Source of the DNA: Bdellovibrionota bacterium
GTDB taxonomy: Bacteria > Bdellovibrionota_C > UBA2361 > JBGSMV01
NCBI GenBank assembly: GCA_044356455.1
Contig: JBIKWF010000008.1
Location: 1 to 64,000 of the forward strand
Length of the DNA stretch: 64,000 nucleotides
Reading direction: 5' to 3'
Shown: piece after piece, positions 30,272 to 64,000 of the stretch
Position numbering within the stretch: position 1 is the stretch's first letter
Layout: each line of letters opens with the position of its first letter
Translations under genes and position numbers: made by a program
Notes under the pieces: model-generated
Seen by the model: the letters and a program-made list of their open reading frames with translations, nothing else
What the model was told of the DNA's origin: nothing
Databases searched by the model: none

Positions 30272-31786
30272 GTGGGGAAGGTTACTTGCGGTGAGTATCG
30301 GAGATATTGCTTGAATAAGTGTCCCTTCATTACTTCTTTCTTAGAGCGTGTTCTCTTAGGCTCGATGATTGCTCTAGTCATTCAGATGAGCATGTTCGCA
30401 GCTCACGGGTTTGCCGAAACACTCGTGATTCCAAGTGTGGAGGAGACCGCGCTTTCGGGCCGCGGTATCGGGTACAGTGCCCCGGCAGTAGCAGAACTTG
30501 ACGGCAATGGTTCAAATGGAAGGGAGATAGTGCTTGGTGGATCAGATGGAGTGCTCCATGCGCTAAGAGCAGACGGAACCGAGCTGTGGACGGTCAATCT
30601 TCCTGGCTCTGATTGCCCCCTCTCTCCTCAAAAGGACAAGCTTTACTCCTCTCCTGTCGTTGGGGCTCTCAGAGGGGACGGTGTCCCCTACGTAGTAGTC
30701 GGCTACGGAGGATTCAAAAGTGCAAAATGTGAAGGCGGAGTTGCTGCGTATAGAGGCAGCGATGGGACTCTCTTCTGGAATTTCAGCGTGAAGGATTTCG
30801 CCCAAAAGAAGGGCTTCTTCGCTTATCGCACCATGGTGTTTTCGACCCCCGCCCTTGCGGATGTTAATGGTGATGGGACGCTTGAGGTAGGGTTCGGTGC
30901 ATTTGATCGAAATGTATACCTATTAAATTCAGATGGAACGTTACGGTGGTATTACCACGCCGCGGATACCGTATGGTCATCTCCCGTTTTTGCCAATGTT
31001 GATGGCGATTCGAACCTTGAGATGATTATCGGAACAGACATAACAAAAAACGGCGCTCTCGTTCCACCGACTCAAGATGGTGGTTTCTTGTACGCGTTTG
31101 ACACGCAAGTTGTATCTGGTGGGTTTGTTCCCTTCCGAGATCCTCAAAAGAAAATAACAAAGTGGCGCCGTTATTTCGATCAGGTGGTCTACTCCAGTCC
31201 TGTTATCGGAGAGCTGCTACCTTCAAAGCGCGGGAAAGAAATTGTTATTGGGAGTGGGTGCTATTTCCCCACTCAGTCTCTCCCGCGTAAGGGGAACGAA
31301 TATCGTGTGCTTAGTCTAAAAACCGGCAAGGTTCGTAAACGAATAAGTACTCCGCTCTGCTCCGCATCTTCAGCGGCAATTGGAGATATCAATAACGATG
31401 GCGTACCTGACATTGTTTTGATGATTGATGCCGATATCGCAAATGGTGGTGACGGGAAGGGGACTGTCATGGCGATAACACCAGAGACGGGCGCCACGCT
31501 CTGGAGCGTCTCTACGCGGGCGCTCTTCCCATTTCAATCTCCTGTGCTCGCCGATCTTGGAGGAGATGGCACTCTGGAGGTTGTCGTTTCAGAAGCTACT
31601 TCGCTTGCAATTCTTAGCGGCGCCACCGGCGCGGTGATGAATCGAATCCGGCTGCCTGGCACGGTGCAATCAACCGCGGCGGTAGCCGATCTTGAAGGGA
31701 ACGGACTTGTTGACATTGTTTCCGCTGGAGGCAAAGGGGGAGACGGCGGCCTGTATGTGCTCAGAGATATTTCGGTGGCGGAGTGA
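30272..31786 (+). CDS. Secreted FG-GAP/VCBS-repeat beta-propeller protein
   Basis: Repeated SSP..aD.dGDG..E motifs; start probably downstream (ATG 30365). Confidence 0.85.
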   Translation: MGKVTCGEYRRYCLNKCPFITSFLERVLLGSMIALVIQMSMFAAHGFAETLVIPSVEETALSGRGIGYSAPAVAELDGNGSNGREIVLGGSDGVLHALRADGTELWTVNLPGSDCPLSPQKDKLYSSPVVGALRGDGVPYVVVGYGGFKSAKCEGGVAAYRGSDGTLFWNFSVKDFAQKKGFFAYRTMVFSTPALADVNGDGTLEVGFGAFDRNVYLLNSDGTLRWYYHAADTVWSSPVFANVDGDSNLEMIIGTDITKNGALVPPTQDGGFLYAFDTQVVSGGFVPFRDPQKKITKWRRYFDQVVYSSPVIGELLPSKRGKEIVIGSGCYFPTQSLPRKGNEYRVLSLKTGKVRKRISTPLCSASSAAIGDINNDGVPDIVLMIDADIANGGDGKGTVMAITPETGATLWSVSTRALFPFQSPVLADLGGDGTLEVVVSEATSLAILSGATGAVMNRIRLPGTVQSTAAVADLEGNGLVDIVSAGGKGGDGGLYVLRDISVAE

Positions 31787-35090: not shown

Positions 35091-37748
35091 TTAGAAGCTT
35101 CTTGCCGCACAGCAGGCATAATTTCTCACAGCCCCGTACAGGTCAAAGTTAACTATTCCATCAGTTGGATTCACGGATGAGGGGCCAAAGCAGCGACTCG
35201 CAACGCGCCGGTACACCGCATAGGCAACAAAACTTGAAGATGAGCCAACCGATCGAAGAGTGACACTTCCCGTATGAAGCCAGGTGTCATCGGGGAAATT
35301 GAGTCCAAGATTTGCCCGATTCGCGCACGCATACGCGAGGTCTTGGTGCTCACACACGCGGCCGCCAAGTGAATAGCACCGGTTCAAGGCCTCTTCGATT
35401 GTTCCAGATGCAGTGAAGCTTGGCTCTATACAGGTAGGTCCAAGGTCAATCCATCCAGCTGGGCACGAGAGTGTAGGTGTGTTTCCGGCAGGTCCTTGTG
35501 GACCTATCGGGCCAATTGCTCCGGTATCACCCTTAGGCCCTTGCAGACCAATAGCGCCAGGCAATCCTTGGGGCCCTGCGGGTCCCGCTGGGCCAGCGAC
35601 GCCGGTATCGCCCTTTAATCCTTGTGGGCCAGTTGCTCCCATGTCGCCTTTGAGACCTTGAGGTCCTGCGGGACCTGTAGCTCCTGTATCCCCCTTCAAT
35701 CCCTGTAGTCCCGTGGGACCGGTTGCGCCAGTATCACCCTTGAGACCTTGTGCGCCTTGAGGTCCCATAGGTCCAGCAACACCCGTATCTCCTTTTTGTC
35801 CCGTTAGACCTTGCTCGCCGCGATCACCCTTAAGACCTTGCGGGCCTTGTGGTCCAATAGCACCCGCATCACCCTTGTCACCTTTGGGACCGACTGCTCC
35901 GTCAGCTCCCGCAGGTCCGGTTGCACCGGTATCTCCTTTCACTCCCGCCAGACCCTGTTCACCGCGATCCCCTTTAAGTCCTTGCGGGCCTTGTGGTCCA
36001 ACCGCACCAACATCACCTTTATCGCCCTTGGGTCCGGCCGCTCCATCTGCTCCTACAGGTCCAGCTGCGCCGGTATCACCCTTTAGACCTTGTGCGCCTT
36101 GCGGTCCCGCAGGTCCGACATTTCCCGTATCTCCTTTTGGTCCCACCAAACCTTGCTCGCCGGTATCACCCTTAAGTCCTTGCGGGCCCTGTGGTCCAAC
36201 CGCACCGGCATCGCCTTTGTCGCCCTTGGGACCGACCGCTCCATCTGCTCCTGCAGGTCCAGTTGCGCCAGTATCACCCTTTAGACCTTGTGCGCCTTGA
36301 GGTCCTGCAGTTCCGACATCTCCCGTATCTCCTTTTGGTCCCACCAAACCTTGCTCGCCGGTATCACCCTTAAGTCCTTGCGGGCCCTGTGGTCCAACCG
36401 CACCAACATCACCTCTATCGCCCTTTGGACCGACTGCTCCATCAGCTCCCGCTGGCCCAGTTGCTCCGGTTTCACCTTTGAGACCTTGTGCGCCTTGCGG
36501 CCCCGCCGGTCCGACATTTCCCGTATCTCCCTTTTGTCCCGCAAGACCTTGCTCTCCGCGATCTCCTTTCAGTCCTTGCGGGCCTTGTGGTCCAACCGCT
36601 CCCGCATCACCTTTTTCGCCCTTCGGACCGAGCGCTCCATCTGCTCCTGCAGGTCCAGTTGCTCCAGTATCACCCTTAAGACCTTGTGTGCCTTGCGGCC
36701 CGGCAGGTCCTACATCTCCCGTATCTCCTTTTGGTCCCACCAAACCTTGCTCGCCTCGATCACCCTTAAGTCCTTGCGGGCCCTGTGGTCCAACCGCACC
36801 AGCATCGCCTTTGTCGCCCTTGGGACCGACCGCTCCATCTGCTCCTGCAGGCCCAGTTGCACCGGTATCACCTTTAAGACCTTGTGCACCTTGCGGACCC
36901 ATAGGTCCAGCAACACCCATATCTCCTTTTGGTCCCGCAAGACCTTGCTCTCCGCGATCTCCTTTCAGTCCTTGCGGGCCTTGTGGTCCAACAGCACCCG
37001 CATTACCCGTTGGTCCTTGCTCTCCTTGTTCGCCCTTTAACCCCTGAGGTCCAGCAACTCCGGCATCGCCCTTCTCTCCTTTTGGACCTTGAGCCCCATC
37101 AGCTCCCGCCTGGCCCTGCAAGCCGGGAAGTCCTTGTGGGCCTGCAATTCCCTGTGGACCTTGTTGCCCCTCTGCTCCCGTGGCGCCGGTCTCACCTTTC
37201 TCACCGCGTTCTCCTTGCGATCCCGCCGGGCCAGCAGGCCCTTCAGGACCCATTGGTCCGGTGTCGCCTTTATCACCCTTGGGCCCTTGCACTTGAAGGG
37301 CGCCGAGAAGTTCAAGGAGTTCAGTAATGGTTACGACGGAAGATAAAAGAGGATAGCTTCGCCCAGAATGGCCACTTGTGTAGACCTGCAAATAAACTTT
37401 GCCTGAGGGACTTTTTGGAACCGAGACTGCGAGAGTAATAAGTCCGTCACGATCAATTTTTCCTGTGCCGACAATACTCGCGCCGCTCGCAGGCTTCGCT
37501 TGCGACCCTTGCAAGACAAAAACATCCGGCTTCAAGCTTATGCCAAGGGTATAGTTGGTGAAGGCCACACCTCGAATCGAGACATTTACTTTGGTGTCCC
37601 CACCCGCACTCAGAATCGCAGGCTCCGAAACGGAAATATCTGGCGCCTCTTTGTTCCAGGAATCAGCCTGCGCTTCCCGTCGCCCTATCAGCAAGCCAAG
37701 GAACAGCGCAGCAACAATCGGATTGAGGAGCAGCACTGGATACTTCAA
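35091..37748 (-). CDS. Secreted collagen-like protein with Cys-rich C-terminal head
   Basis: About 200 consecutive G-X-Y triplets; signal peptide; GAGG RBS before TTG. Confidence 0.9.
35484..37286 (-). repeat. Collagen-coding repeat with a 198-bp higher-order unit
   Basis: 66-aa unit [15 protein letters not shown]...GDAGAV repeated about 5-6 times. Confidence 0.85.
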
Positions 37749-46971: not shown

Positions 46972-48333
46972 ATGAAATCTTATGACGTGGTAATTGTAGG
47001 AGGGGGATGCTCTGCGGCTCTTCTGCTTCTGCAGTTAGTTGAAGCCCTCCCTAAAGGATCCCACGTTGCCATAATAGACGCGAGTGACATGCCCACAAGA
47101 GGCATCGCCTATCGCACGAGAAACACTCGGCACCTTCTTAATGTGCCGGCTGCTCGTATGAGTGCCTACCCCCAGAAACCAGAAGACTTCTGTAACTGGC
47201 TCAAAGCATCGGGGAAAACATTCGGAAACTTCGATTTTGTTCCGCGCTGGACTTACGGTGACTATCTAGAGCAGAGACTGGCTGAAGCTACGGCTTCCCA
47301 ACAACCTACTCTCGAGTGGATAAAGGGAACTGCTTCGGGAATCGAGCAAGTGCCTGGTCCACACGAGACTAAATATGTGGTTCAGATCGCAGGTCATGAG
47401 CCTGTAGCGGGGAGAAACTGTATTCTTGCAGTGGGAACTCCCGTTTCCGAGTGGCCTAGTATCTTTAGGTCGGCAGGCATCAAACGCGCAGATCTGCTCC
47501 TTGTTGACCCATGGAAAATGCAGGCTTCTTCTGATGTCCCCAAGGATTCAGAGGTCTGTGTTCTTGGGACGGGCCTCACGGCTGCAGATGCGGTGATAGA
47601 GCTTGTCACTCATTCCCGCCCTCGAAAAATTACTATGCTTTCTCGGCATGGTTTGCTCTCTGAGGTTCATAAACCAGAACTCTACTTACAGCCGGGCCTG
47701 AGTGCTCCCACACTACCCTTGCGACTTCGTCAGGTTTTAAGATGGGTCAGGGAAGGCAGCCGTAGTACTGATTGGCGCCGCGTGGTTGATGCGCTAAGGC
47801 CGGTCACGTCTCAGCTTTGGAAGGGCTTTACTCAGTTTGAAAAACGGCAATTTTTACGGCATCTACGGTCGCATTGGGATGTGGCAAGACATCGGATGGC
47901 CCCTCAGATTCGAGAGGAGCTGGACAAATTACGCTCGGCTGGAATTCTCGAGATAGTTTCCGGAAGAGTTCGCAAAGTAGAGATTCAAGGCGACAAGGTC
48001 GCGCTTTCCTTCCATGATCGCAGCCATTCCTTGCGTGAACTTCATATCGCTCGCGTGGTAAACTGCACCGGCTTTGGTGATATGGCTCCGCCAGGAAGTT
48101 TACTTGCAAAGCTTGAATCGGGTGGTTTGCTTAAACGTTCGCAAATCGGCTTTGGATTTGAAGTTGATAGCACTCGTTCTCCGGGGTTCTTTTTGATTGG
48201 CTCGCTCAGGCTTGGCGAGTTATGGGAGAGCATCGCAGTGCCTGAACTGAGGCAGCAAGCCCGGCAGATTGCTGAGACAGTAGCGGCTTCATGCGTAACT
48301 GAGTCTTTTGCGCCAGGCGCCTCAGTTCCATAG
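46972..48333 (+). CDS. FAD/NAD(P)-binding oxidoreductase (NAD_binding_9-like)
   Basis: IVGGG, GIAY..HLLNVPAARMS, GTGLTA.D, NCTG, WESIAVPELR. Confidence 0.85.
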   Translation: MKSYDVVIVGGGCSAALLLLQLVEALPKGSHVAIIDASDMPTRGIAYRTRNTRHLLNVPAARMSAYPQKPEDFCNWLKASGKTFGNFDFVPRWTYGDYLEQRLAEATASQQPTLEWIKGTASGIEQVPGPHETKYVVQIAGHEPVAGRNCILAVGTPVSEWPSIFRSAGIKRADLLLVDPWKMQASSDVPKDSEVCVLGTGLTAADAVIELVTHSRPRKITMLSRHGLLSEVHKPELYLQPGLSAPTLPLRLRQVLRWVREGSRSTDWRRVVDALRPVTSQLWKGFTQFEKRQFLRHLRSHWDVARHRMAPQIREELDKLRSAGILEIVSGRVRKVEIQGDKVALSFHDRSHSLRELHIARVVNCTGFGDMAPPGSLLAKLESGGLLKRSQIGFGFEVDSTRSPGFFLIGSLRLGELWESIAVPELRQQARQIAETVAASCVTESFAPGASVP

Positions 48334-48336
48334 GTT

Positions 48337-49359
48337 CTAAGAGTTGCCGTCTTCCACTGGTTGATCCACCGGTTTGGCAGAGGAAGCTCCTTGAGAAAGG
48401 AAGTACTCAACTGCGGCGCAGGCCCAGGCGTTAAATCTGTCCTTCTCAGGGCCAAGGGCAATTGAATGCGCCGATCCTCCAAAGCGACAGACTTCAATGG
48501 CGCGGGAAGAGAGAGAGTCTTTGATGATATCAGAGCTGCGTGGCAGAGCGGAACGATCATGCACTCCATGCGCCAGAAAAACGGGGGGAGTAAAGGCCCC
48601 GGAGGCCACAAGCTTACGTGCATCCACCCGTAACTGCTCGATACCAAGAATTGCCCCGCGCGCGATAACAGGTATCCTAGGCCTTAGGTCCCATTCTGTG
48701 GTCCGGTATTGGGGCGGCACAGGTGTCGGCCCAAAACTAAGCTCCTCGAGGACGAATTCATCCAACTCTGGTCCCTTTAGCTTTCTCGCCTTGCGAGCAA
48801 CATTCCACTGGTAGAGGGCCCTTAGAGTGCTAGCTCCTTTGAGATAGGCCCCTTCAGTGATTACCCCGGCAACGGGCCTAAACGAGAAGCGCTGAGCGAG
48901 TTGAAGCGCTACCAAAGCCCCTATTGAGAAACCTCCGAAAATAAGAGGTGTCGTCTCTGGTAGCCCGAAGATCGCTTCCTGCACTGCATTAACTGCCTTG
49001 TTCATTACGTTATGTGCGGAAAACTGGGCGGGCACCCTCATTTTCTCATCATGTCCCCACAAGCTGGTCAGGGACACATGAAGAGAGCGGTCGTGTAGTA
49101 GGGCGCCCAAATGCCGATAATGATAGGGACCACATTCTCGAAAGCCGCCAATCAGGATTACTGCGGCACGCGCGCGAGAGGGCTCGCATGGAAGTACGAG
49201 ATCCGAGATCCACTCTGCTTGAGATAGCCCCCGATTCGAAGATAGGTCCTCTAAGGGCATCGAGAGCACGGGCGCTGCGGAGGAAGCCTCTCTATGAACT
49301 CCATCTCCACGGGCAGATGGACTTGAAAGAGGGGACGAATGAGGAGACGAACCTGCCAT
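48337..49359 (-). CDS. Alpha/beta hydrolase (carboxylesterase-like)
   Basis: GFSIG nucleophile elbow, HG.HD, SAH. Confidence 0.8.
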   Translation of the reverse strand: MAGSSPHSSPLSSPSARGDGVHREASSAAPVLSMPLEDLSSNRGLSQAEWISDLVLPCEPSRARAAVILIGGFRECGPYHYRHLGALLHDRSLHVSLTSLWGHDEKMRVPAQFSAHNVMNKAVNAVQEAIFGLPETTPLIFGGFSIGALVALQLAQRFSFRPVAGVITEGAYLKGASTLRALYQWNVARKARKLKGPELDEFVLEELSFGPTPVPPQYRTTEWDLRPRIPVIARGAILGIEQLRVDARKLVASGAFTPPVFLAHGVHDRSALPRSSDIIKDSLSSRAIEVCRFGGSAHSIALGPEKDRFNAWACAAVEYFLSQGASSAKPVDQPVEDGNS

Positions 49360-49524
49360 AATTCAAACAGCATTGGCGCGGGTAAGAGGCCGGAGAGATT
49401 AGCGCAGGCCTGAGCCTCCATCAATCTATTCCCCTAAGTAGCTGGAAAGATATGAACTAAACCCCGCTCGAACGATGGGTGATGCATGAGAGACTCCTTT
49501 TGAAGTGGATACTCTCGCTCAAGT

Positions 49525-50001
49525 ATGTTGATATCTTTGTCGAAACAAGGACGGATGGGATTTAGAAAGCCGACATTAGCTTCTGTGGTTCTCGCGATGC
49601 TTTGGCTGCTTTGTGCCATCCATTGCACTGTCGATAAGGCATCTGCCCATTGGCACATCGGAGGTCCCGCTGAATCACCGGTTCATCATCATTCACCGAT
49701 CGGTCAGGAAACCTCCGAGAATGGATGTCCCCAACATGATAGTTCTCTTGACTCCAAGGGCGAGGAGTGCTGCTCAATCCAGGCCAGACTAATCTCTTTG
49801 CATGCCTTCTAGAGGGAATCCTTACATCCGCGCCTGATGGCTTCAGCCCTGGGGCTTATTTTTTCTCATGCGAAAATTTTTCTTCTGCATGACGAAAGAG
49901 GCCCTAGTCCGCAACCTGAGGCAGCTTTACGTCAATTCACTTTTCTTTCCGAACATCTTCGTGCCGCTTGCGCTCCTAATGCCCCGCCTTCAAACGTTTA
50001 G
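49525..50001 (+). pseudogene. CzcI/DUF2946-like His/Cys-rich leader protein interrupted by in-frame TAG (49810-49812)
   Basis: Frame continues 62 codons past the TAG to ...AACAPNAPPSNV-stop; N-terminal hydrophobic helix, HHH, CC. Confidence 0.65.
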
Positions 50002-50142
50002 TCGCTGGGGCAGACGTCATCGCAGGTCCCTTGGAGTGAGTCCGGTAGAAATATAGCTTGCCGTTTCGGACCGACTTCTCGACTCCCAATTTCATGTTCG
50101 TAGTGCTCAATTTCATCGCACCGTTCATCGGAGCATGCTGTT

Positions 50143-51372
50143 ATGAACCAGTTTAAAAAAAGAATTGCATGTCTGCTTCTCGCGGGAGTAGGGCTATTTT
50201 CACCTTTGCTCGTAGTGGCAGAGAGTCAAACAACCACCTTGGAGGAGCTACTTGCCCGAGCCTTGGACGAAAGTCCGCTCGTCAAGAGGATTGCAGCTCA
50301 CACGACTCAAAGTCGGGCTCTCGGCATTGAAACTTCCACTCTTGAAAACCCAACGCTCGATTCTGAGATCCGATTCCCTACCTCTCGAGGGGATTCAAAG
50401 GGGCAAAATGAAATAGCACTCGCCTTGTCTCAGCCCATGCGAGTCAGTGACTTTGGCACGCGAGCCCGCATTAACGAGCTTATCCAAAGCGCAGCTTCGC
50501 AGGATGAAAGAGCCGAGCTACTCGCATTTTCGCAGCGATTTCGTCTTGCCTACGTAAAGTCGTGGTCTCTTTCGCAAAGAGCAGATGAGATGCAGGGCTC
50601 TCTTGCGAGAATCTCAAAGATCGAAAAGCACGTAAATGCTGCCGCTCAGGGTGGCTTCATTCTACCAAGCGAAAGGGCACTTTTTAAAGCAGAAGCATTG
50701 AAGGCGCGCTATCAGCTAAGGGCCCTGAGTGCCGACCTAATCCGAGCGCGAGCTGAGCTTGCAAAACTCGCAGGCTTCGCAGTGGGAGAAAAGTTGACGC
50801 CTCCAACCTTTGCCGTTCTCCCTAGTGAGGCAGAGTTGCTTGAAAGAGAGGAGCGCCTCCCCGCACAAACCCGCGCTAAACTGGCATTGCAGCTAGCCAC
50901 TGAGCAGATGAAGCGAGCCGAGCTCGATGCCTACCCATAATTCGCTCCACGAATCGTATACGAGCGCAATAACGATGCTTCCGAGTACGTGGGCTTTGGA
51001 ATCTCATTTGATCTTCCCGTCTTCAATCGAAATCAGTCGGAAAGGAGCGTGCATACGTCCGAAGTGGTAGCAGCTCGAAGTCTAGATAACTACTTCTCGG
51101 GCGAAGCCTTTGTGAGCGAGGTCAAAGCGCTTCGCTCTCATATAGAGGTTTCTATGCAGCTGCTCTCCGGGTACCAAAAAGAAATTGTCCCCGCTTTGCG
51201 CGAAGCAGTAGCAGAAGAAGAACGCCTTTTCTCTGAGGGACAAGGAAACTTTTTCCGCATGTGGCAAAGCCTCCGTGAGCTCACGGAGGCACAGAATGAA
51301 GTGGCGGAGAGGATGGTGAGAACTTCCGCTGACCGCGCTGAACTTTCTTTGCTGATAGGGGCAGACCTTTAA
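50143..51372 (+). pseudogene. czcC: CzcC/TolC-family outer-membrane factor interrupted by in-frame TAA (50938-50940)
   Basis: Two ORFs in the same frame joined by FAPRIVYERNNDASEY; ISFDLPVFNRNQ motif. Confidence 0.85.
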
Positions 51373-51383
51373 GGACAATAGCT

Positions 51384-52643
51384 ATGAAAAAGTCATTCTT
51401 TCTTATCATATTTCTTGCGAGCTTTATGACGTGGCTTGAAACTCCGGCCTTTGGGGGAGGCGGGCATGACCATGACCATGACCACGGCCACGGGCATGAG
51501 TCTCATGAAGAAGAGCCGCCGAAGAGACCCCATGGAGGACGGCTACTTGCAAAAGATGATTTTGCTCTCGAGATCACTATCTTTGAGAAGGGTGTGCCGC
51601 CGCAGTATCGTCTATATCCTTACAAAAATGGTGAACCGATTGATGCTTCCGAAGTATCAGTGGGTATCTCGCTTACGAGATTTGGCGGAAAGAAGGATGA
51701 ATATAACCTAACCGCAAAAGCCGAGTATCTTACCTCTGAAAAAGTTGTTGAAGAGCCACACTCCTTTGACGTGAGTGTTACCGCCACATGGAGAGGCAAT
51801 GCCTATACGTGGGACTATGAGTCTTACGAAGGACGAACCGAATTGAGCGATGAAGCACTCAAGGTTGCACGCATCACAATTGATACGGCAGGACCGCAAC
51901 TTATCAGTCAAGTAACCAATGTCTATGGCAGGCTGGTTCCGAATCAGGATCGGGTGGCGCATATTCGCCCCCGCTTTTCGGGAGTAGTTCGGGAGATTCG
52001 AAAGGAGTTGGGAGACAAGGTCGAAAAGGGGGAAGTCCTCGCAATTATTGAGAGCAATCAGTCGCTTCAGCCTTATGAGATCCGTAGCCAGATAAGGGGG
52101 GAAATAATCGCTAGGCACGCGACATTAGGAGAGTTCGTAACAGACGAGAAAGAAGTTTTTGTAGTCGCAGATCTCTCAGAAGTCTGGGCGGACTTTCAAG
52201 TGTACCGTGATGACTCGGACAACATTGAGCGAGGCCAACCTATCAAGGTTGACTTGGGTGAAGATGCCTCATTCGATGCAAAGGTTACCTATGTGGCCCC
52301 GCTCACTGACGAGGTGACCCAGTCAAAGCTTGTGCGCGCGGTAATCTCGAACCCGAGTGGACGGTTACGTCCAGGCCTATTCATCTCAGGCTCTCTTTCA
52401 AGCAACGAAAAATCTGCGGCGCTCGCAGTAAGGCGTGAGGCTATCCAGAGCTTTCGTGACTGGAGCGTCGTGTATCTCACCGATGGGAAGGTGTTTCAAG
52501 CCATGCCAGTAGAGCTTGGTCGGAAGGACTCTTCCTATGTCGAAGTTCTCTCAGGGCTCGAGGCGGGAGACCGCTACGTTTCGCATAATAGTTTCATTAT
52601 CAAAGCTGATATCGAGAAGTCAGGGGCAAGCCACGACCACTAA
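51384..52643 (+). CDS. czcB: CzcB/CusB periplasmic adaptor
   Basis: His-rich N-terminus, EPHSF, ADLSEVW, LRPGLF, C-terminal KSGASHDH. Confidence 0.9.
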   Translation: MKKSFFLIIFLASFMTWLETPAFGGGGHDHDHDHGHGHESHEEEPPKRPHGGRLLAKDDFALEITIFEKGVPPQYRLYPYKNGEPIDASEVSVGISLTRFGGKKDEYNLTAKAEYLTSEKVVEEPHSFDVSVTATWRGNAYTWDYESYEGRTELSDEALKVARITIDTAGPQLISQVTNVYGRLVPNQDRVAHIRPRFSGVVREIRKELGDKVEKGEVLAIIESNQSLQPYEIRSQIRGEIIARHATLGEFVTDEKEVFVVADLSEVWADFQVYRDDSDNIERGQPIKVDLGEDASFDAKVTYVAPLTDEVTQSKLVRAVISNPSGRLRPGLFISGSLSSNEKSAALAVRREAIQSFRDWSVVYLTDGKVFQAMPVELGRKDSSYVEVLSGLEAGDRYVSHNSFIIKADIEKSGASHDH

Positions 52644-52658
52644 CTAGAAGCGAAATAG

Positions 52659-56199
<3,541 letters not shown>

Positions 56200-56201
56200 A
56201 G

Positions 56202-56498
56202 CTAGTCTCCGAAGGCAATGGTACTGCGGCGAGTATAGAGTCCAAACAGAATAGAGAAATATTCAACATCCAGGTGATTGATGGTCTTAATTCCACCATT
56301 CTCCGCAGCGGCGCGTGTGCCAGAATCGCCCCACGCTACAAGCCAGGCTACAGAGTACGAGCTCGACTTGCCTTCCTTAGTGCCAAGTACTGTCTGGGAG
56401 ACGTCGGTATCAAGCGTATCGCGAATATTGAGGTAGGCGCAGCCTGGAGCAAGCGTAGCAACAAGCGCAATCAGCGAGAGGCGTTTAAAAAGTTTCAT
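56202..56498 (-). CDS. TRL-like family lipoprotein
   Basis: APG-C, LVAWGDSG..AA..GGI..I.H.D, SILFG; AAGGAG RBS before ATG 56498. Confidence 0.8.
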   Translation of the reverse strand: MKLFKRLSLIALVATLAPGCAYLNIRDTLDTDVSQTVLGTKEGKSSSYSVAWLVAWGDSGTRAAAENGGIKTINHLDVEYFSILFGLYTRRSTIAFGD

Positions 56499-56674
56499 CG
56501 AGAGAAGCTCCTTAATGAGCAAGTGCATTAGACGTGCCGGCACTTAGCCGTGCTGGCCTGCCAAGTAGCCTAATTCAGTACGCAGGTTCACGATAGAGAA
56601 TAGTTGCCTGCGATCTTTCGCGGTCCTGGGGAGCGCTGCCCCTGGGGGAAAGGAGAAGAAGACTTTAAGGTTCT

Positions 56675-57406
56675 TCAGAGGTCGGGAAGTAGCCAATCAA
56701 TTGGCTTCTCGCCATGTTCAAGTAAGTACTGATTCGCCCTAGAGAAATGTTTGCATCCAAAAAATCCGCTGTGCGCCGAGAAAGGAGAGGGGTGGGCGGC
56801 CGAGACAACGAGGTGTTTCTTGTTATCAATGAAACTGCCCTTCTTTTGGGCATAGGCGCCCCAAAGCATGAAAACAAGATGCTCCTTTCTTTCATTGAGC
56901 TCGCGTATTACGCGGTCGGTAAAAGTCTCCCAGCCCTTATTTGCATGCGACCCAGGGTTCCCCGCTTCCACGGTGAGGACAGAATTGAGCAGGAGGACTC
57001 CTTGCCGTGCCCAGGACTCTAGGCAGCCATGCTTAGGAATGGGGAGAGACAGATCTGCGTTAAGTTCTTTAAAAATATTAACCAAAGAGGGAGGAGGTTT
57101 CACGCCTTTCTGCACTGAAAAACAAAGCCCGTGAGCTTGTCCAGGTCCATGGTATGGGTCTTGTCCAAGAAGCACGACTCGAGCTTCAGAGAAGGGAGTA
57201 AAACTCAAAGCATTAAAGATGTCTGAGTTCTTAGGATACACAGTCTTGCCGCTCGCGCGAGCATCTTCAACCATTGCGAGCAATTGCAGGAAATAAGGTT
57301 TCTCGCGTTCCCCCGCAAGCACTTCCTTCCAGCTTACGCTTGCTGCGCTGCGCTCTGGGATGTGGGGCGCCGGTTCATGTAGTGCGGTTTCTTCTTGCAT
57401 CGGCAT
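56675..57406 (-). CDS. ung: Uracil-DNA glycosylase (family 1)
   Basis: GQDPYH, PPSL.NI, GVLLLN, HPSP. Confidence 0.97.
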   Translation of the reverse strand: MPMQEETALHEPAPHIPERSAASVSWKEVLAGEREKPYFLQLLAMVEDARASGKTVYPKNSDIFNALSFTPFSEARVVLLGQDPYHGPGQAHGLCFSVQKGVKPPPSLVNIFKELNADLSLPIPKHGCLESWARQGVLLLNSVLTVEAGNPGSHANKGWETFTDRVIRELNERKEHLVFMLWGAYAQKKGSFIDNKKHLVVSAAHPSPFSAHSGFFGCKHFSRANQYLLEHGEKPIDWLLPDL

Positions 57407-57435
57407 GGGTAAAAATCTCCCAAGAGAGATTCACT

Positions 57436-58371
57436 TTAATAGGGTTTAGCCTCTTCAATTTCTTGGCACATATGGCAGTAAGACTCGTAGCGCGAGAGTG
57501 CCATTCCGCCGTCTTTAATCGCATGTTTTGTTGCATCTCGGACCGCGCAGCGCCTTTCTGCTATGTGGGCGCAGTCAGAAAACTCGCAGCGTCCCTGTAA
57601 CCTTAGAATTTCTGGAAAGGCTTCGGCAACTTCAAGCCGAGTAAGATGTTCGACACCGAATTGCTGAATCCCGGGAAGATCAACTACTACAAGATCCTGC
57701 ATGCCCGTGCGCGGGAGGATAAAGCCAGATGCTTGCGAGGTCGTTTGTTTCCCTTGACCGGTACGTACACTCACTTCAGCGGTAGCCCGGGAAGCTTCCG
57801 GGATAAGTTTATTAATAAGTGTGCTTTTCCCTACGCCCGAAAGCCCACAAAGTGCGACCGTAGAGAGGGAAGCATCATTTAGTTTTTGCCGAAGTTCTTC
57901 TAGCCCAGGTCCAAACTTGGCGGCGGTGCGAAGCACCTGCACGCCTATCTTTTCATAGGCTGCAATCGCTTCTTCACAGGTAGTAAGTCCAAGGTCGGTT
58001 TTATTGATAATCAGAGCCCAAGGGATTGCTTGGCTATGGGCAACTACGCACATTCGGTCGATAGAGAGGGTATTAAGAAGAGGAGGGACCGCGCTCACGA
58101 TGAGCAGCAAGTCCACGTTGGCAACAATTGCCTTGGTATCTCCCCGATAGGAACGCGAAAGTGTATTTTTGCGTGGGTGGGCAGAGGAGACAAAAACCTG
58201 ACCCCCTTCCTCATGAAACTCCACTCGGTCCCCCACTAGTAGGCTGAGGCTACGAGATGCAATGGTTCCCGCCCTACCTGGCTGCCCAGCATGTGAGATA
58301 GTTGCGTGTCTTCGCGAGGTGTTAAGAACAACGCCATGACCAGTTGAGGGTGAGTTACTCATGAGGAGCAC
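57436..58371 (-). CDS. rsgA: Ribosome small subunit-dependent GTPase A
   Basis: Circularly permuted NKTD, GLSGVGKS, DLPG; C.FSDC.H....CAV zinc site. Confidence 0.95.
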   Translation of the reverse strand: MLLMSNSPSTGHGVVLNTSRRHATISHAGQPGRAGTIASRSLSLLVGDRVEFHEEGGQVFVSSAHPRKNTLSRSYRGDTKAIVANVDLLLIVSAVPPLLNTLSIDRMCVVAHSQAIPWALIINKTDLGLTTCEEAIAAYEKIGVQVLRTAAKFGPGLEELRQKLNDASLSTVALCGLSGVGKSTLINKLIPEASRATAEVSVRTGQGKQTTSQASGFILPRTGMQDLVVVDLPGIQQFGVEHLTRLEVAEAFPEILRLQGRCEFSDCAHIAERRCAVRDATKHAIKDGGMALSRYESYCHMCQEIEEAKPY

Positions 58372-58407
58372 TACTCATTGGAAGCACTGCGTTGAGGAAC
58401 ATTCATT

Positions 58408-58893
58408 TCAAGGCCTGCCAAACAGGAGCGAGAGGTTCTTGCCAGTTTCCGGGGCGCCGGCCCCCCTCTCGGATGCTCCCTCAAAATAGCTCTTCAATTC
58501 AAGCATCAGTCGAAGAGCCTCTTTGCCAACTGCTGACCAGTCAATCGTGCTGCCATATTCAGAAATAATAAAGCTCGTGAAGGTAAAAACTATCGGCGCA
58601 ATAAGGGCAGGAAGAATCCCTTCGCACTCGATACCCGGCAGCACCTTCACAATTATCCAAAAGATTGCGCCGTTTGTAAGAAGCAGGGTAAGGGCCTTGG
58701 AGCTTAAGGTATCGGGGACCTTAAAGAACAGAGCCGTATCCCATATATGAGCATTCACGAACGCAAGAGCGAGGACTGTGAGAAAAGCCGGAATGGGACC
58801 GTCTACCCTAAGCTTGGGGATCAATAATGCAGTCACCAACATGGCGAAGGTCTGAAGCAGCCAATAGCTAAGATTAACGGGAAGTCCTGACAT
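58408..58893 (-). CDS. YvlD/phage-holin-4-like membrane protein
   Basis: Four TM segments; LIP.LRVDG, NGAIFW, PGI motifs. Confidence 0.7.
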   Translation of the reverse strand: MSGLPVNLSYWLLQTFAMLVTALLIPKLRVDGPIPAFLTVLALAFVNAHIWDTALFFKVPDTLSSKALTLLLTNGAIFWIIVKVLPGIECEGILPALIAPIVFTFTSFIISEYGSTIDWSAVGKEALRLMLELKSYFEGASERGAGAPETGKNLSLLFGRP

Positions 58894-59031
58894 AGAGCCT
58901 TATTCTGGTACGGGGAAAGAGAGCTGAAAAGAGGCTCTTGATAGAGAATGCGGCTCCCCTGCTAAAAACTGCCCATCATTGGCCGATGGGAGGTGTTTGC
59001 TCAGGCCCGCGATGTATGGGATTAGTATAGC

Positions 59032-59736
59032 ATGCGATTTGGTTCACATCGTCGAGTTAGGTCTTCTCAAGTAACCAGCAATGAGGCTGCCTCAAAAGAC
59101 GCGCCTTCTTTGGGAAGCTCAGCCCTTGTGGCCCCCCCCGATAGCGGGGCTTCATCTCAATCTCAGCGGGCAGTGCATGGTGAATTGAAGGGCCATGGTG
59201 AATTGAAAGGCCGGGCGAAATCGGGGGCCAGTGGAATGAGCTTGCTCCGGCGTAGTTTGGCTCCTTGGGCAGGGATTAGTGCCCAGCTATCGAGATTTCT
59301 TGAAAAAATATCTGCTCCTTTCTTTGGAGCCAAATTTCCTGAAGCTCGCCAGGCCCAAACGCCTCAGGCGCCTGGTAGTTCGCAATCTACGCAGCCCTTG
59401 AACAGACGTGCGCGCATTCTGGCGCGGGTAAGGTCGGTGTTGTTCACGGCGCTTTGGTTTATGCCTGGCGCGTTTTTTATAGCAATTGGGTTAAGTGTGG
59501 CCTTTGCTCCTCAGCTTCTCATGAGTGCAGTTGCAGGATTCTGCGTATTTTTCGGTTTCGCGTCCTTTGGATTGGCTTGGAAGTTTATCCAGCTCAAGAA
59601 CAGAGTAGAGAAAGTTGCGCAGTCTTTTGAGACGCGAATTATGGTGCAGGCCATTCCTCATGGAAAGCTTGCAGATCCAGAGGAGCGTGTTCAGGATTTG
59701 GGAACAGTTCAAACTAAGAAAATCCTCTTTCATTAG
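59032..59736 (+). CDS. Hypothetical membrane protein
   Basis: Low-complexity N-terminus, two TM helices. Confidence 0.6.
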   Translation: MRFGSHRRVRSSQVTSNEAASKDAPSLGSSALVAPPDSGASSQSQRAVHGELKGHGELKGRAKSGASGMSLLRRSLAPWAGISAQLSRFLEKISAPFFGAKFPEARQAQTPQAPGSSQSTQPLNRRARILARVRSVLFTALWFMPGAFFIAIGLSVAFAPQLLMSAVAGFCVFFGFASFGLAWKFIQLKNRVEKVAQSFETRIMVQAIPHGKLADPEERVQDLGTVQTKKILFH

Positions 59737-59930
59737 TGAGTCCAGGGAAGGCATCGACTCGCCGCGCGCCTTGCGAGGCTCACTCTATCGGGATGCAAAC
59801 TTTCGATTTGGAATGAATATATTCTCCCGCGATGCCCTCTCTTGTGCGGCAAAGAAGTTTCGAAGGCACGCAGCTTGCTGAAAAAAGCCACTCCGTGGTG
59901 AGAAATTGAGAGGTGGGAGGGGAGCAAGAC

Positions 59931-61742
59931 CTACTCAAGCAACTGAAGCGCCAAAGCCGGAGCCTGATTCGCTTGTGCGAGAATCGCCGTTGCAATCTCC
60001 TTGAGCGTTCTCGTTTGAACCAATGCCGCGCTTTCGTTTGCGATATCAATATTCGTGATTCTTGCAGACGCCGCATCATAGTTCTCTTTTGAGGAGCTTA
60101 GGGTGTTCAGAGCTACTGCAAGCCGGCTCTGGGTACTTCCTATAGCACCAAGCTCTTTAGATACTCTCGCAAGCGTCGCATCAATCACCGATAACGAACC
60201 TAGCGCTTCTGCGCGCGTCGTAAGATTGAGGCGCTGCATCGAGGTTACTTGCTCGCTGTTAGCAAGCCCGATTCTAAAGCCCGAGCTTGCGTTAGTAGAG
60301 ACGAGGTAGTCGGCGGTGCCATCTCCGTTGAAATCACCAATCGAGAGATTACTTGCGAATGGAAGGACAACAGTTCCAAAAGTATTCGAAGCGCCAAATG
60401 TCCCATCCGCTGAGCCGTACCTGCCCTGCATCGTGCCATTTGCATTCACGAGAATGTCTGAGACTCCGTCTGCGTTGAGGTCAGCCACCTTGAGCGTATA
60501 TATAAAGCCACCGAAGGCTATCGAAGCTGCGTCCGCGAAGGTTCCGTCCCCCCGCCCCAAGTTTACCAAAGCGTTCGAACCTGAAGTGCCAATCGAATCA
60601 AGAATTCCGTCGCGGTTAAAATCGGCGAGCTGCCGAGAGGAGGTCAATCCTGACGCTATCCCCGAACCAAAGGTGCCATTGCCCGAACCAAAGTAGCTTT
60701 TCAATCCAGTAAGAATATCTATGCTCCCATTTCCGTCTAAATCTCCCAGCAGAGCAGCGCTGCCCCCAGTTCCTGAGATAGTTTGCGTCGGGGTGGATGA
60801 GAAAGACCCTGAGGCCGAGGCAAGGTGCACCGTATGAGCTCCGGAGGCTCCGACTAACAAGTCCGTTCGCCCATCATTGTTCAAATCCGCGGCCGCAAGA
60901 CTGGAAATACCCGAAAATCCGCCGACCGCAGAGGTCCCAAAGCTCCCAGTTCCTAAATTGGTATAGATGACGACAGAAACCGAGGTCACGTCTTGAGCTG
61001 CGATATCTATCCGACCATCCCCATTAAAGTCGCCAATAACGACTTGTGCAGAAGCAGCAGTGGAGCCTTGGGCCTGAGAAGTAAAAGTGCCGTTACTGTT
61101 ACCGAAATAGGTAACAATATTCCCCAACTCAGATGTGACAACGTCCATAATGCCGTCGCCATTAAAATCAGCTTCAACCTGAGAATTTACAAAATTGGCG
61201 CCACCTAAGTTGCTGCTCACAAAGGTTCCGTTCCCGGCAGTCCGGTCCAACTCAGTTCCAAGCCCGAATCCAATTGAGCCTGAAGTCCCCAGTCCTAGTT
61301 GTAGTCTCAACTCGCGCAGATCTCCGTCGAGAAGATTAATTCCGTTGTACGTCACACTGCTGAAGATCCGGTTGTACTCTTCAGTAAGCGCAGCCGCTTC
61401 TTTGTCCGATGATATCCTCTGAGTTCTGGAAAACGACCCGTTAGATGCTCCTATCGCAAGCTCTCTTAGCCGAAGAAGAATTCCCGATCCGCTCGTGAGC
61501 GCGCCCTCGGCAATAGAAAGTGCACTGATACCGTCGTTCGCATTTCTAATCGCCTGCGAGAAAATGCGGCTACTTACGTTAAGCTGGGAAGATACGGAGA
61601 GCCCCGCTGCATCGTCTGAAGCTCGGTTGATACGCATGCCGGAGGCCAGCCGCTCGAAGCTCAGCGACTCCGCCGACGTGGCTCGGTTCAACTGGCGCTG
61701 CGCCAGAAGAGAGGAAATGTTCGAACCAATTGAAATTGGCAT
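59931..61742 (-). CDS. fliC: Flagellin with seven FG-GAP/VCBS repeats in the variable region
   Basis: ERLASGMRINRASDDAAGL, AIRNANDGIS; LGAIGSTQSRL, ARITNIDIA.E, ILAQANQ...LQLL; 7 DxxxDG..D-type repeats between. Confidence 0.93.
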   Translation of the reverse strand: MPISIGSNISSLLAQRQLNRATSAESLSFERLASGMRINRASDDAAGLSVSSQLNVSSRIFSQAIRNANDGISALSIAEGALTSGSGILLRLRELAIGASNGSFSRTQRISSDKEAAALTEEYNRIFSSVTYNGINLLDGDLRELRLQLGLGTSGSIGFGLGTELDRTAGNGTFVSSNLGGANFVNSQVEADFNGDGIMDVVTSELGNIVTYFGNSNGTFTSQAQGSTAASAQVVIGDFNGDGRIDIAAQDVTSVSVVIYTNLGTGSFGTSAVGGFSGISSLAAADLNNDGRTDLLVGASGAHTVHLASASGSFSSTPTQTISGTGGSAALLGDLDGNGSIDILTGLKSYFGSGNGTFGSGIASGLTSSRQLADFNRDGILDSIGTSGSNALVNLGRGDGTFADAASIAFGGFIYTLKVADLNADGVSDILVNANGTMQGRYGSADGTFGASNTFGTVVLPFASNLSIGDFNGDGTADYLVSTNASSGFRIGLANSEQVTSMQRLNLTTRAEALGSLSVIDATLARVSKELGAIGSTQSRLAVALNTLSSSKENYDAASARITNIDIANESAALVQTRTLKEIATAILAQANQAPALALQLLE

Positions 61743-61787
61743 GACGGCAAAAAACAGAACTTAAATTAAAAGTTTCCTACCTTGGTA

Positions 61788-61814
61788 AGTTCGGCATCTC
61801 AGCAAAACTTTTAA
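61788..61814 (-). promoter_or_regulatory. Sigma28-like promoter of flagellin
   Basis: T-TAAA-N14-GCCGAACT versus consensus TAAA-N15-GCCGATAA. Confidence 0.5.
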
Positions 61815-62443
61815 TGATCTGGGCCATTTAAGAATGCCAACAAAACAAGTTACTCTTGGACTCATGACGAGGGCCCGCGCGTGCTAAGGCAGCTAAGCAG
61901 CTAGATTTATATGCAAAGTCATCACCTCGGGCGCAATGAAAACCAAAATCCTTAAGAAGTCTTCCTACTTCGAACGGATCTCCGCGGTATCTGACCAAAC
62001 ATTTTTCGCGGTGTTTCGATCGGGCAGCGCCCCAGGAGTCCTACCCTGCTCCGGAGCGGGTAAAGTTCCTAATTTTTGAATTCAATTGGTCGAGAGCCGC
62101 AAGTCGGTGCTCAGGCCCCCATGGCCACAAAAGATGGGTCTGCCTGGAGCCCTCTCCTTGCAATGAATAACTTCTCTGGGTTTCCCAGCGAGACCCTTGC
62201 GCTCCCTTGACGTCGAGATAGAACCTATCGATCTGCCTTGAGTACGGTCTTCGGCGTTCCCTCTTTTCAAAGACTTCTACATTTCCTTGGCACGCATTTT
62301 GCTCAGCCTCCTTAACGGGTGGTGAGAAAATGAAAGGTCACTGAAGTGCGCTAAACGCTTGAAGTGGTACGAGTTTAACTGAGTACCTCCTTGCATAGCA
62401 CGAGGGCATCACAGCGACCTCATAGTCTCACTGAGAGGTTAGC

Positions 62444-64000
62444 TTGTTTAGTTCTTCTCATAACTTCGTAGTCCGAGGGGCGTGCCTATCGCTACTTTCC
62501 CTCCTTCTCGCATCTGCGCCTGCAATTGCTAGCCCTGGGCTTCCCGTTGGCTTTGCGCCACTTTATGGATCTTACGCTTGCCGCTTCGGAATCCCGAATC
62601 GTGTCGTTGAGTTCAGGCAGCGCGTCGTGTCCGGAAATTCTCAATACGCGCGCACGATTCCAAGCATAAAGTCGCTTATCATCAAAAGAGATAACGCAGT
62701 TCGTAGACGCTCCGAGGAGAGAAGCCAAAGAGTTAGAGAAGAGCTTGGCCGAGCCATAACGAAGTATGGAGAGCTCATACGTCTTTCGAGATATTGCCGC
62801 GATTTGAGGCGTCCCGCGGCCTCCCCAACCCCGGCTCAAAGTGCAAGCCCTACACCTCTTCCGACAAGCACTTCCGTGCCATCTCCTTCGTCTAGTCCTA
62901 CGCCTACCCTTGGAGTAGCTACTCCTCCTGGTATAGAGATTCCACCTGAGATTACCGCTACAAGTGCTCCCACAAAAACAGCGACACCCACGAGCACCTC
63001 ACTACCTTCGAAAACACCAACTGCGGTAGCTACCGTAACTTCTACCAAAACAGCGACCCCCACAGGAACGGCGACTCCAACAAAAACCCCTTCAGCTACT
63101 GCTACAAAAACACCTACGGCAACTCCGACCAAGTCTGCAACTCCCACAAAAACAGCCACGCCCACCAAAACGCCTACCGCAACTTCAACAAAAACACCCA
63201 CCCCTACGACATCGCCAACCCCGCCTCCTGATCCAACTGCGACACCCTTTGCGCCGCGTCCTTTGATTCAAGCCTCGGCTGCAACTTTCTACAGTGTTAC
63301 CTACACCGTGACGTACTACGTGCTTTCATTGGGGCAAGATAGGCCCGGTGAGGCCGCTCAAGTTTCAGTCGAGCCGGTGAACGCGGCGAATCCACATCGC
63401 GCAAGTGTTCGTGTGTATGACCCGAGCGAGAAGTTGCAGGTGCTCCAGCAAATAGAGGGGCAAGGCGGAGTGCAATCGAAATTCTCTCCGTCCCCGCAGC
63501 TAGAGCTTTCCTCAGGACCATTTCCTCTTGCCAAGAATGGGACCTATGAGGTGCGCATCAGCGGAAATTCGAATATTCGCGCCAAGCTAAACCTTCCTCA
63601 AGAGGTAGGATGGGGCATCTCGTTCCAAAACGGCTGGTTTAGACCTTTTGAGGGCCAGCAGCCTGTTATGTATACCTGGATTACACAGCATCCCACCCAG
63701 CCACTTAAGCTTACGTTTGTTTCCTCCTCGCAGGTCCTTAACGTGGCTTTGCCTGGGAAAGATCTCACTCCGATCTATGATGCGGAGGGAAAAATTCTTC
63801 GCTGGGAACTAATCGTTCCACCTTCAAGTTCGCAGACTGGCTATGTTCAACAGGTGCAGCTGAGCGGGGGAAGCAATCTTCATTTCCAAGTCTCAGGCAT
63901 GCCGTTTATCCTCAGTCGTAGCGCCGAAGAAGCGGCACAAATCGGAGGCGGGCTGCAGCGCGTAGCGGGAGGGCCCATGAGTGGCTACCTTATTGCGCAT
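62444..64000 (+). CDS. Large secreted protein with Pro/Thr-rich linker; 3'-truncated by window edge, absent from ORF track
   Basis: GAGAGG RBS, TTG start, [29 protein letters not shown] signal peptide, (TKTATP)-type repeats at ~62820-63250, no stop before 64000. Confidence 0.85.

Follow-up and report, generated by a model that had tools for sequence, protein, structure and literature searches.

A flagellin with a predicted seven-bladed VCBS/FG-GAP propeller from an uncultured Bdellovibrionota bacterium is one copy of a large, catalogued family

We wanted to establish whether the flagellin gene at one end of the 64,000-nucleotide stretch of DNA analyzed here (the window) is real, what its large insert is, and what such an insert might do on a flagellar filament. 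The open reading frame at 61742-59931 on the minus strand encodes a 603-aa flagellin (P0001) with a VCBS/FG-GAP propeller insert. The intact flagellin termini described in an earlier note, which was made from the letters alone, are both recognized by Pfam above the curated cut-offs: Flagellin_N at aa 6-140 (E = 4.8e-30, 104.9 bits against a cut-off of 26.6) and Flagellin_C at aa 518-602 (E = 1.1e-13, 51.7 bits against a cut-off of 23). The middle of the protein matches FG-GAP_3 (E = 7.3e-41, also above the curated cut-off) and no catalytic or peptidase family in Pfam. Only flagellin parts flank the propeller, both by Pfam and in the model described below, in which the D0/D1 core is helical and has filaments as its best Foldseek matches. 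The seven repeats quoted in the earlier note were all found in P0001, at aa 192, 238, 286, 334, 374, 421, and 470, and no such motif arose in 2,000 shuffles of the protein. The insert, which had been placed at about 60260-61230 with a length of ~325 aa, lies close to there, at aa 167-499 (window 61244-60246, ~333 aa). The parts of the gene are as follows.

59931..61742, minus strand: whole gene, P0001 (open reading frame and Pfam)
61245..61742, minus strand: flagellin N-terminal core, aa 1-166, with D0 helix, spoke motif, D1 helices, and beta-hairpin (Pfam Flagellin_N; model helices 9-33, 41-100, and 106-129)
60246..61244, minus strand: predicted seven-bladed VCBS/FG-GAP beta-propeller, aa 167-499, ~333 aa (model and structural realignment)
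61143..61169, minus strand: calcium-type loop 1, aa 192-200 (motif)
61005..61031, minus strand: calcium-type loop 2, aa 238-246 (motif)
60861..60887, minus strand: calcium-type loop 3, aa 286-294 (motif)
60717..60743, minus strand: calcium-type loop 4, aa 334-342 (motif)
60597..60623, minus strand: calcium-type loop 5, aa 374-382 (motif)
60456..60482, minus strand: calcium-type loop 6, aa 421-429 (motif)
60309..60335, minus strand: calcium-type loop 7, aa 470-478 (motif)
59934..60245, minus strand: flagellin C-terminal core, aa 500-603, with D1 and D0 helices (Pfam Flagellin_C; model helix 510-602)

We considered whether P0001 might be an assembly chimera or a decaying gene, as could be suspected from the 14 of 143 conserved columns at which it deviates from the family consensus (the 90th percentile; the family median is 9) and from the fact that, among the contigs of four other lake-water runs, mostly at least 99% identical to it, none alone covers the whole gene. 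A chimeric join at the domain boundaries, the concern raised in the earlier note, was looked for and not found: the junction between the propeller and the C-terminal core is bridged by contigs from three of the four other runs, and the N-terminal junction is bridged by one of the four (the X4 contig, 60669-61523). Further, the frame is open, the sole in-gene variant among the lake-run contigs is synonymous, and Flagellin_N, FG-GAP_3, and Flagellin_C occur together in all of the best 120 homologues listed. The GC content of the gene parts is even (0.53/0.52/0.52). We thus give chimerism or decay next to no credence and conclude that P0001 is a real gene.

The structure of P0001 was modeled with AlphaFold2 on a 120-sequence alignment, and in the model (mean pLDDT 91, pTM 0.83) long helices at the two termini enclose a middle made up of beta strands. 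Structural realignment placed residues 171-499 onto seven-bladed propellers with Z scores of about 25-27.5 over ~300 residues (LGI1, 27.5; CRTAC1, 26.7; integrin alpha-IIb, 26.2, with an rmsd of 2.9 Å over 307 residues). The closed seven-bladed propeller on a flagellin core that had been expected from the repeats is thus predicted with high confidence. Because the scores are tied among LGI1, CRTAC1, BBS9, and integrin, no function can be read from the fold. Sequence comparison of the insert gives weak matches to integrin alpha-IIb (E about 2e-4) and a fungal GlcNAc lectin (E about 5e-4). Blade 7 appears to be closed by an N-terminal strand (a 1+3 velcro); since its C-D loop and last strand seem to come from the N-terminal side, the propeller would be joined to the core at its conserved face, and it is from the sequence that we infer the orientation of the propeller in the filament.

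P0001 resembles the integrin alpha head and other VCBS propellers (PVL lectin and CRTAC1; PMC8023676) in its seven blades and the DxDxDG-type A-B loop but differs from them in having no conserved FG...GAP, no GW motif, and no signal peptide and in retaining all seven loops. Neither FG nor GAP forms conserved columns among 120 homologues. We rejected an identity as an integrin alpha chain, as the FG-GAP/cage residues, the leg domains, and the membrane anchor are absent, and a WD40 label, as the Trp-Asp at the end of strand C is absent and tryptophan is missing from the P0001 propeller and makes up 0.2% of propeller residues in the family. A toxin reading, suggested by PF12256 matches in some homologues and by Tc-toxin rows in the Foldseek output, was also rejected, as shared VCBS blades account for both.

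P0001 is a further copy of a large catalogued family and not the first sighting of one. Matched by domain make-up and length (the representative is A0A521GVE6), it has what characterizes outer-domain cluster #55 of the flagellin survey by Fields et al. 2024 (PMC11532411), namely flagellin ends, a propeller outer domain of 280-450 aa, and FG-GAP_3. This cluster is named "WD40-repeats" in one clause of that paper; 16 of its 40 members are labeled FG-GAP_3 (Supplementary Data 1), and these combine Flagellin_N, Flagellin_C, and FG-GAP_3 in 545-670 aa and come from MAGs. Unlabeled propeller flagellins of Paenibacillus, Desulfovibrio, and Chlamydiales are grouped in this cluster too; an FG-GAP flagellin of Fuerstiella stands apart, as cluster #636. 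The novelty implied in the earlier note was therefore set too high. In its available portions, the survey does not analyze calcium loops, paralogue repertoires, or function for cluster #55. By title and abstract, in the literature outside subscription papers, we found no study devoted to the flagellin FG-GAP/VCBS family, and a term search of PMC7018530 gave no match. The flagellinolysins (Eckhard et al. 2017, PMC5595980) are alike in carrying a folded foreign domain inside the hypervariable region of an intact flagellin; they differ in that the insert is a zinc protease of demonstrated activity with a scattered distribution, whereas propeller flagellins are multi-copy in one class. VCBS/FG-GAP is not named in the searched parts of that paper, whose Supplementary Table 1 (61 insert domains) may list VCBS.

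A protein search returned 2,317 matches at E <=1e-30 among 8,000 candidates; the best 120 listed of these all have the three-domain architecture at 36-45% identity, and full-length relatives come mostly from MAGs labeled Bdellovibrionota, Bdellovibrionales, Oligoflexia, or Deltaproteobacteria; the class concerned is probably UBA2361 of GTDB. Across 110 genomes of the phylum, flagellins were detected in 101 and the insert in 47 at a threshold of 1e-12, a count in which kin genomes are non-independent and some insert matches sit in non-canonical carriers, and from which at least one genome, G018, is missing despite its full-length match. The nine flagellin-less genomes of the phylum gave no insert match. 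The median number of Flagellin_N matches is 15 (6 to at least 33) in the 47 insert-positive genomes, compared with 7 (2-15) in the remaining 54 that have flagellins. Some genomes of the phylum carry four or five copies in tandem.

In a quick tree of 103 flagellin cores (midpoint root, one short row dropped, SH-aLRT support), 51 propeller flagellins group together (SH-aLRT 98) with a three-repeat copy, a long-branch plain flagellin, and two flagellins bearing PD40 propellers. Propeller flagellins may have a single origin. PD40 (TolB-like) propeller flagellins were seen at L074:359-2410, L078:2230-4326, and L083:2447-4477, two of them lying within the FG-GAP clade by their cores, which suggests from sequence that PD40 and FG-GAP inserts were exchanged between related cores. 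The mean core identity is 0.79 in the main plain clade versus 0.50 among propeller flagellins, a gap that fits a division in which plain flagellins would be the main subunits and propeller flagellins accessory ones. We also note a propeller flagellin (L049:2680-4650) on an 18-kb contig labeled Bythopirellula, which sits on a short branch nested among the copies of this lineage and reflects either misbinning or transfer.

The host of P0001 is an uncultured lake bacterium. Its genome (G000; 4.70 Mb, at 93% completeness) gave 25 matches to Flagellin_N, and 22 of its ORFs have both flagellin ends, so the suggestion that P0001 is one of several cargo flagellins was borne out. These 22 fall into four insert classes: seven with a seven-repeat propeller (one of them truncated where its contig ends), one with three repeats (L019:1369-2835, contig C73), ten with a mid-sized insert, and four plain. 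A fragment, FlgL, and a divergent protein of 743 aa account for the remaining matches. We can only speculate that neighboring subunits of the three-repeat flagellin might jointly complete a ring. The ten mid-insert flagellins (L007:1465-2754 and nine others, 430-487 aa) share an insert of 170-207 aa; several carry one dockerin-like DxNxDG loop, and this ~175-aa domain matched no Pfam or Atlas family (best Atlas score 0.88).

The earlier note had also stated that no other flagellar gene lies in the window, and we found none among the 34 ORFs of at least 90 aa in window 48000-64000 (four neighbors were scanned with Pfam). A complete export and motor set is encoded elsewhere in the genome, outside the P0001 contig: a scan of 89 ORFs identified rod, rings, hook, FlgK/L, the export gate, FliF/G/H/I/M, FlhF, FliA, and two FliD. 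The two fliD cap genes form a tandem pair (L110:14226-17484, contig C13). FliS is also encoded, and a Maf-like glycosyltransferase gene follows fliS. There are three motA/motB loci, two with an OmpA-bearing MotB, and four chemoreceptor matches. In the main flagellar cluster (L107:2379-3465, contig C110), two degenerate membrane proteins come after motA, and one of them retains the MotB helix. The motB of this cluster has no recognizable OmpA domain, but we rejected a non-rotating flagellum, as two other motA/motB loci have OmpA.

We noted that a Dx[DN]xDG-type motif occupies the A-B loop of all seven blades of P0001 and that 97 of 120 homologues have all seven. Across these 120 sequences, the D, N, D, G, and D positions of the A-B loop are 78-99% conserved in every blade. 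The C-D loop is conserved as well, while the B-C and D-A loops are where entropy is highest and indels concentrate. In four-stranded propellers, the A-B and C-D loops lie on one face and the B-C and D-A loops on the other. From their motif (PMC8023676), the seven loops would be expected to bind calcium. In 10 close pairs, loop identity is 0.68 for the calcium loops, 0.74 for C-D, 0.22 for B-C, and 0.19 for D-A, pooled figures that include two pairs (L119a/b and L035b/L051) with domain borders misplaced by the motif parser. In 6 of the 10 pairs, tandem copies among them, the cores are 82-90% identical and the propellers 36-46%. In a dN/dS test for positive selection on the 10 pairs, pN is below pS in every class, with synonymous sites saturated. 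The core itself is well kept among the 120 homologues, with mean conservation of 92% for the spoke motif and 70% for the C-terminal D0, and both D0 helices are retained.

The one part of the earlier note that did not stand is the word "lectin". In PVL and tachylectin, the sugar pocket is formed by a GW motif in loop D-A (PMC8023676); this motif occurs in 5 of 809 blades of the family and in none of the D-A loops of P0001, and the variable loops are aromatic-poor, consisting mostly of Gly, Ser, Ala, and Thr with less than 3% Tyr. The term is therefore unsupported. In UmbA4, calcium loops are conserved, binding pockets diverge, and binding relies on Trp and Tyr (bioRxiv 2025.04.24.650519, section 8). 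The P0001 propeller is acidic (28 Asp and Glu versus 9 Lys and Arg), and Ser and Thr make up 22% of it.

Upstream of P0001, one candidate promoter was found by comparison with the textbook sigma-28 box.

61788..61813, minus strand: candidate sigma-28 (FliA) promoter, 9 of 12 consensus matches, 53 nt 5' of the start codon

On its own this candidate is weak, being equaled in 52 of 500 shuffles. Across the family, boxes with at least 9 of 12 matches occur in 18 of 48 regions upstream of propeller flagellins, where 8.7 are expected and none of 200 shuffles reached as many; this excess was not seen upstream of plain (1 of 16) or mid-insert and other (1 of 18) flagellins. A de novo search of 23 host upstream regions gave a best motif of 8.26 bits compared with 7.4-7.9 in four shuffles, which is not convincing, and no sigma-70 promoter or terminator scored above chance near the P0001 gene.

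The lineage also has a divergent flagellin-like paralogue, found in 73 of the 110 phylum genomes in one or two copies each; its open frames measure 171-4,816 aa. That it is homologous to flagellin is indicated by profile comparison (98.4%) and PDB flagellin matches (E = 2e-11), and the best Foldseek matches of its model are flagellins (E = 5e-4, TM about 0.5), but it is without the spoke motif and its D0 is altered. Many copies are insert-free and of ~300 aa; others carry tandem VCBS propellers in frames of 4,585 aa (62 FG-GAP_3 stretches) or 3,898 aa, lengths that repeat-rich assemblies may misstate. Examples are L114:6209-19963 and L115:4771-16464 (both minus strand), G051:C1 (4,816 aa), L121:728-7264 (minus strand), and L110:1377-3605 (minus strand). 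In the P0001 host, the 743-aa copy bears another kind of beta-rich insert, and a plain flagellin and the two fliD genes are found 8 kb away. Giant flagellins (over 1,000 aa, with filaments of at least 30 nm; Thomson et al. 2018, PMC6248924) indicate that large outer domains are compatible with filament assembly; they differ in being single main flagellins with other inserts, whereas the carriers here reach 4,816 aa on a divergent core.

What, then, might P0001 do? The best reading, which we hold to be as likely as not, is that P0001 joins the filament as an accessory subunit and presents a variable face, specific to each paralogue, that serves recognition or attachment. In its favor count the predicted fold on a flagellin core, the export and motor set with FliS, two FliD, and the chemoreceptors, the repertoire, the asymmetry of the two faces, the close pairs with similar cores and divergent propellers, the more variable cores, the apparent insert swaps, the sigma-28-like boxes, and a Tad cluster beside an sctV gene. 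Judging by what is known of the family and by the genes present, P0001 would have a transcript of its own, probably dependent on FliA, and would pass unfolded through the flagellar channel with the help of FliS. Its D0/D1 core would then co-polymerize with the conserved plain flagellins of ~290 aa, which would make up most of the filament, P0001 being a minor subunit or one used under certain conditions. Outside the cell, the insert is predicted with high confidence to fold into the seven-bladed propeller, presumably locked by calcium in the seven conserved loops on the core-attached face. The least certain step is that the hypervariable opposite face, which differs between paralogues, would provide multivalent, low-affinity recognition of cells or particles. 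By analogy, the seven copies in this genome (elsewhere up to a dozen or more) might form a repertoire like that of the Bdellovibrio MAT fibers or the Streptomyces UmbA lectins, in which paralogues likewise combine a conserved carrier with a diversified, exposed target-recognition domain. Those systems differ in using other carriers, and UmbA4 is six-bladed with aromatic binding residues; binding has been shown there, while for propeller flagellins it is a proposal.

Several observations speak against this reading: the propellers have no sugar-binding signature, rapid change of the exposed loops may reflect mere relaxed constraint, sigma-28-like boxes show no excess upstream of plain or mid-insert and other flagellins, P0001 deviates from the family consensus at 14 of 143 conserved columns, and in Bdellovibrio bacteriovorus the flagellum is sheathed and prey is met at the opposite pole (PMC13689555). 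The propellers might instead form a variable coat without a ligand, that is, a rigid, calcium-stabilized filament shell with a possibly O-glycosylated variable face, which would alter recognition by flagellotropic phages or grazers or thicken the filament. Flagellin outer domains often serve packing and motility (PMC11532411), the variable loops are small and poor in aromatic residues, and the Ser+Thr content of the propeller and the Maf-like glycosyltransferase gene after fliS agree with such a coat. So does a rough packing estimate, by which one propeller per subunit fits at a radius of about 90 Å (51 Å lateral spacing). Antigenic switching, however, needs neither a swap of propeller type nor chains of a dozen propellers on one subunit, and we judge the coat a serious candidate that is nonetheless somewhat unlikely.

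Alternatively, the flagellin ends could be an export tag, with the propeller released by flagellar secretion in soluble or surface-bound form. The much faster evolution of propeller-flagellin cores compared with plain ones would suit this reading, as would the divergent flagellin-like paralogue of the same lineage, whose D0 is altered and whose inserts exceed what a lattice could take; but export alone should not require the two D0 helices and the spoke that are conserved in the 120 homologues of P0001, and we consider release improbable. Nor do we find it likely, and indeed we would be quite surprised, that the acidic calcium face bridges the filament nonspecifically to anionic polymers or minerals while the variable face is neutral. 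Such bridging would agree with the acidity of the propeller and with strong conservation being confined, on its surface, to the calcium loops, but the attachment stalk appears to exit from that same face, and the retention of seven or more divergent paralogues would be left unaccounted for.

Extending the recognition reading to the whole repertoire, we tentatively propose, as a possibility that stands well short of even, that the flagellum of this uncultured Bdellovibrionota-like class is a polymorphic recognition organelle, with a plain filament, 10-30 accessory flagellins with swappable inserts, and a giant carrier. The accessory inserts would be the VCBS propellers, the PD40 propellers, and the ~175-aa domain, and the divergent carrier, whose chains would run to about a dozen propellers and whose length reaches 4,816 aa, would sense or snare prey or host cells; both parts belong to the same tentative proposal and share its doubtful standing.

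Compared with the catalogued cluster, new here are the near-invariant calcium face set against a hypervariable face, the conserved cores with divergent propellers in tandem copies, the enrichment of sigma-28-like boxes, the apparent insert swaps on related cores, and the giant tandem-propeller carriers. If the variable face does bind targets, a filament built for motility would at the same time be a modular array for recognition, the flagellinolysin idea would be extended from an enzyme to an adhesin, a feeding or attachment strategy would be suggested for a widespread uncultured class, and a natural seven-loop propeller scaffold on a self-assembling filament would be at hand. Most deserving of further study are the size of the repertoire, the contrast between the two faces, and the giant carriers.

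Further, the host genome has two additional SctV-type genes. One adjoins a Tad cluster (L108:9609-18794, contig C184), in which CpaE, CpaB, CpaF, TadB, and TadC lie beside sctV and Ser/Thr kinases; the other belongs to a second locus, sctV/sctJ, which also encodes a FliA-like sigma factor (L109:8974-13992, contig C7). The Tad cluster beside sctV can be likened to predator Kil/T3SS* systems (PMC12075869), and by this analogy the pairing gives a hint about how the host may live. Divergently transcribed from P0001 is a ~1,290-aa protein with a Pro/Thr-rich linker and no Pfam match (window 62444-64000, plus strand, continuing to C38:66307). On the same strand, the window also encodes a lone 504-aa FG-GAP/PQQ-type propeller protein (30272-31786) and an 885-aa protein with a long collagen-like Gly-X-Y repeat (35091-37748).
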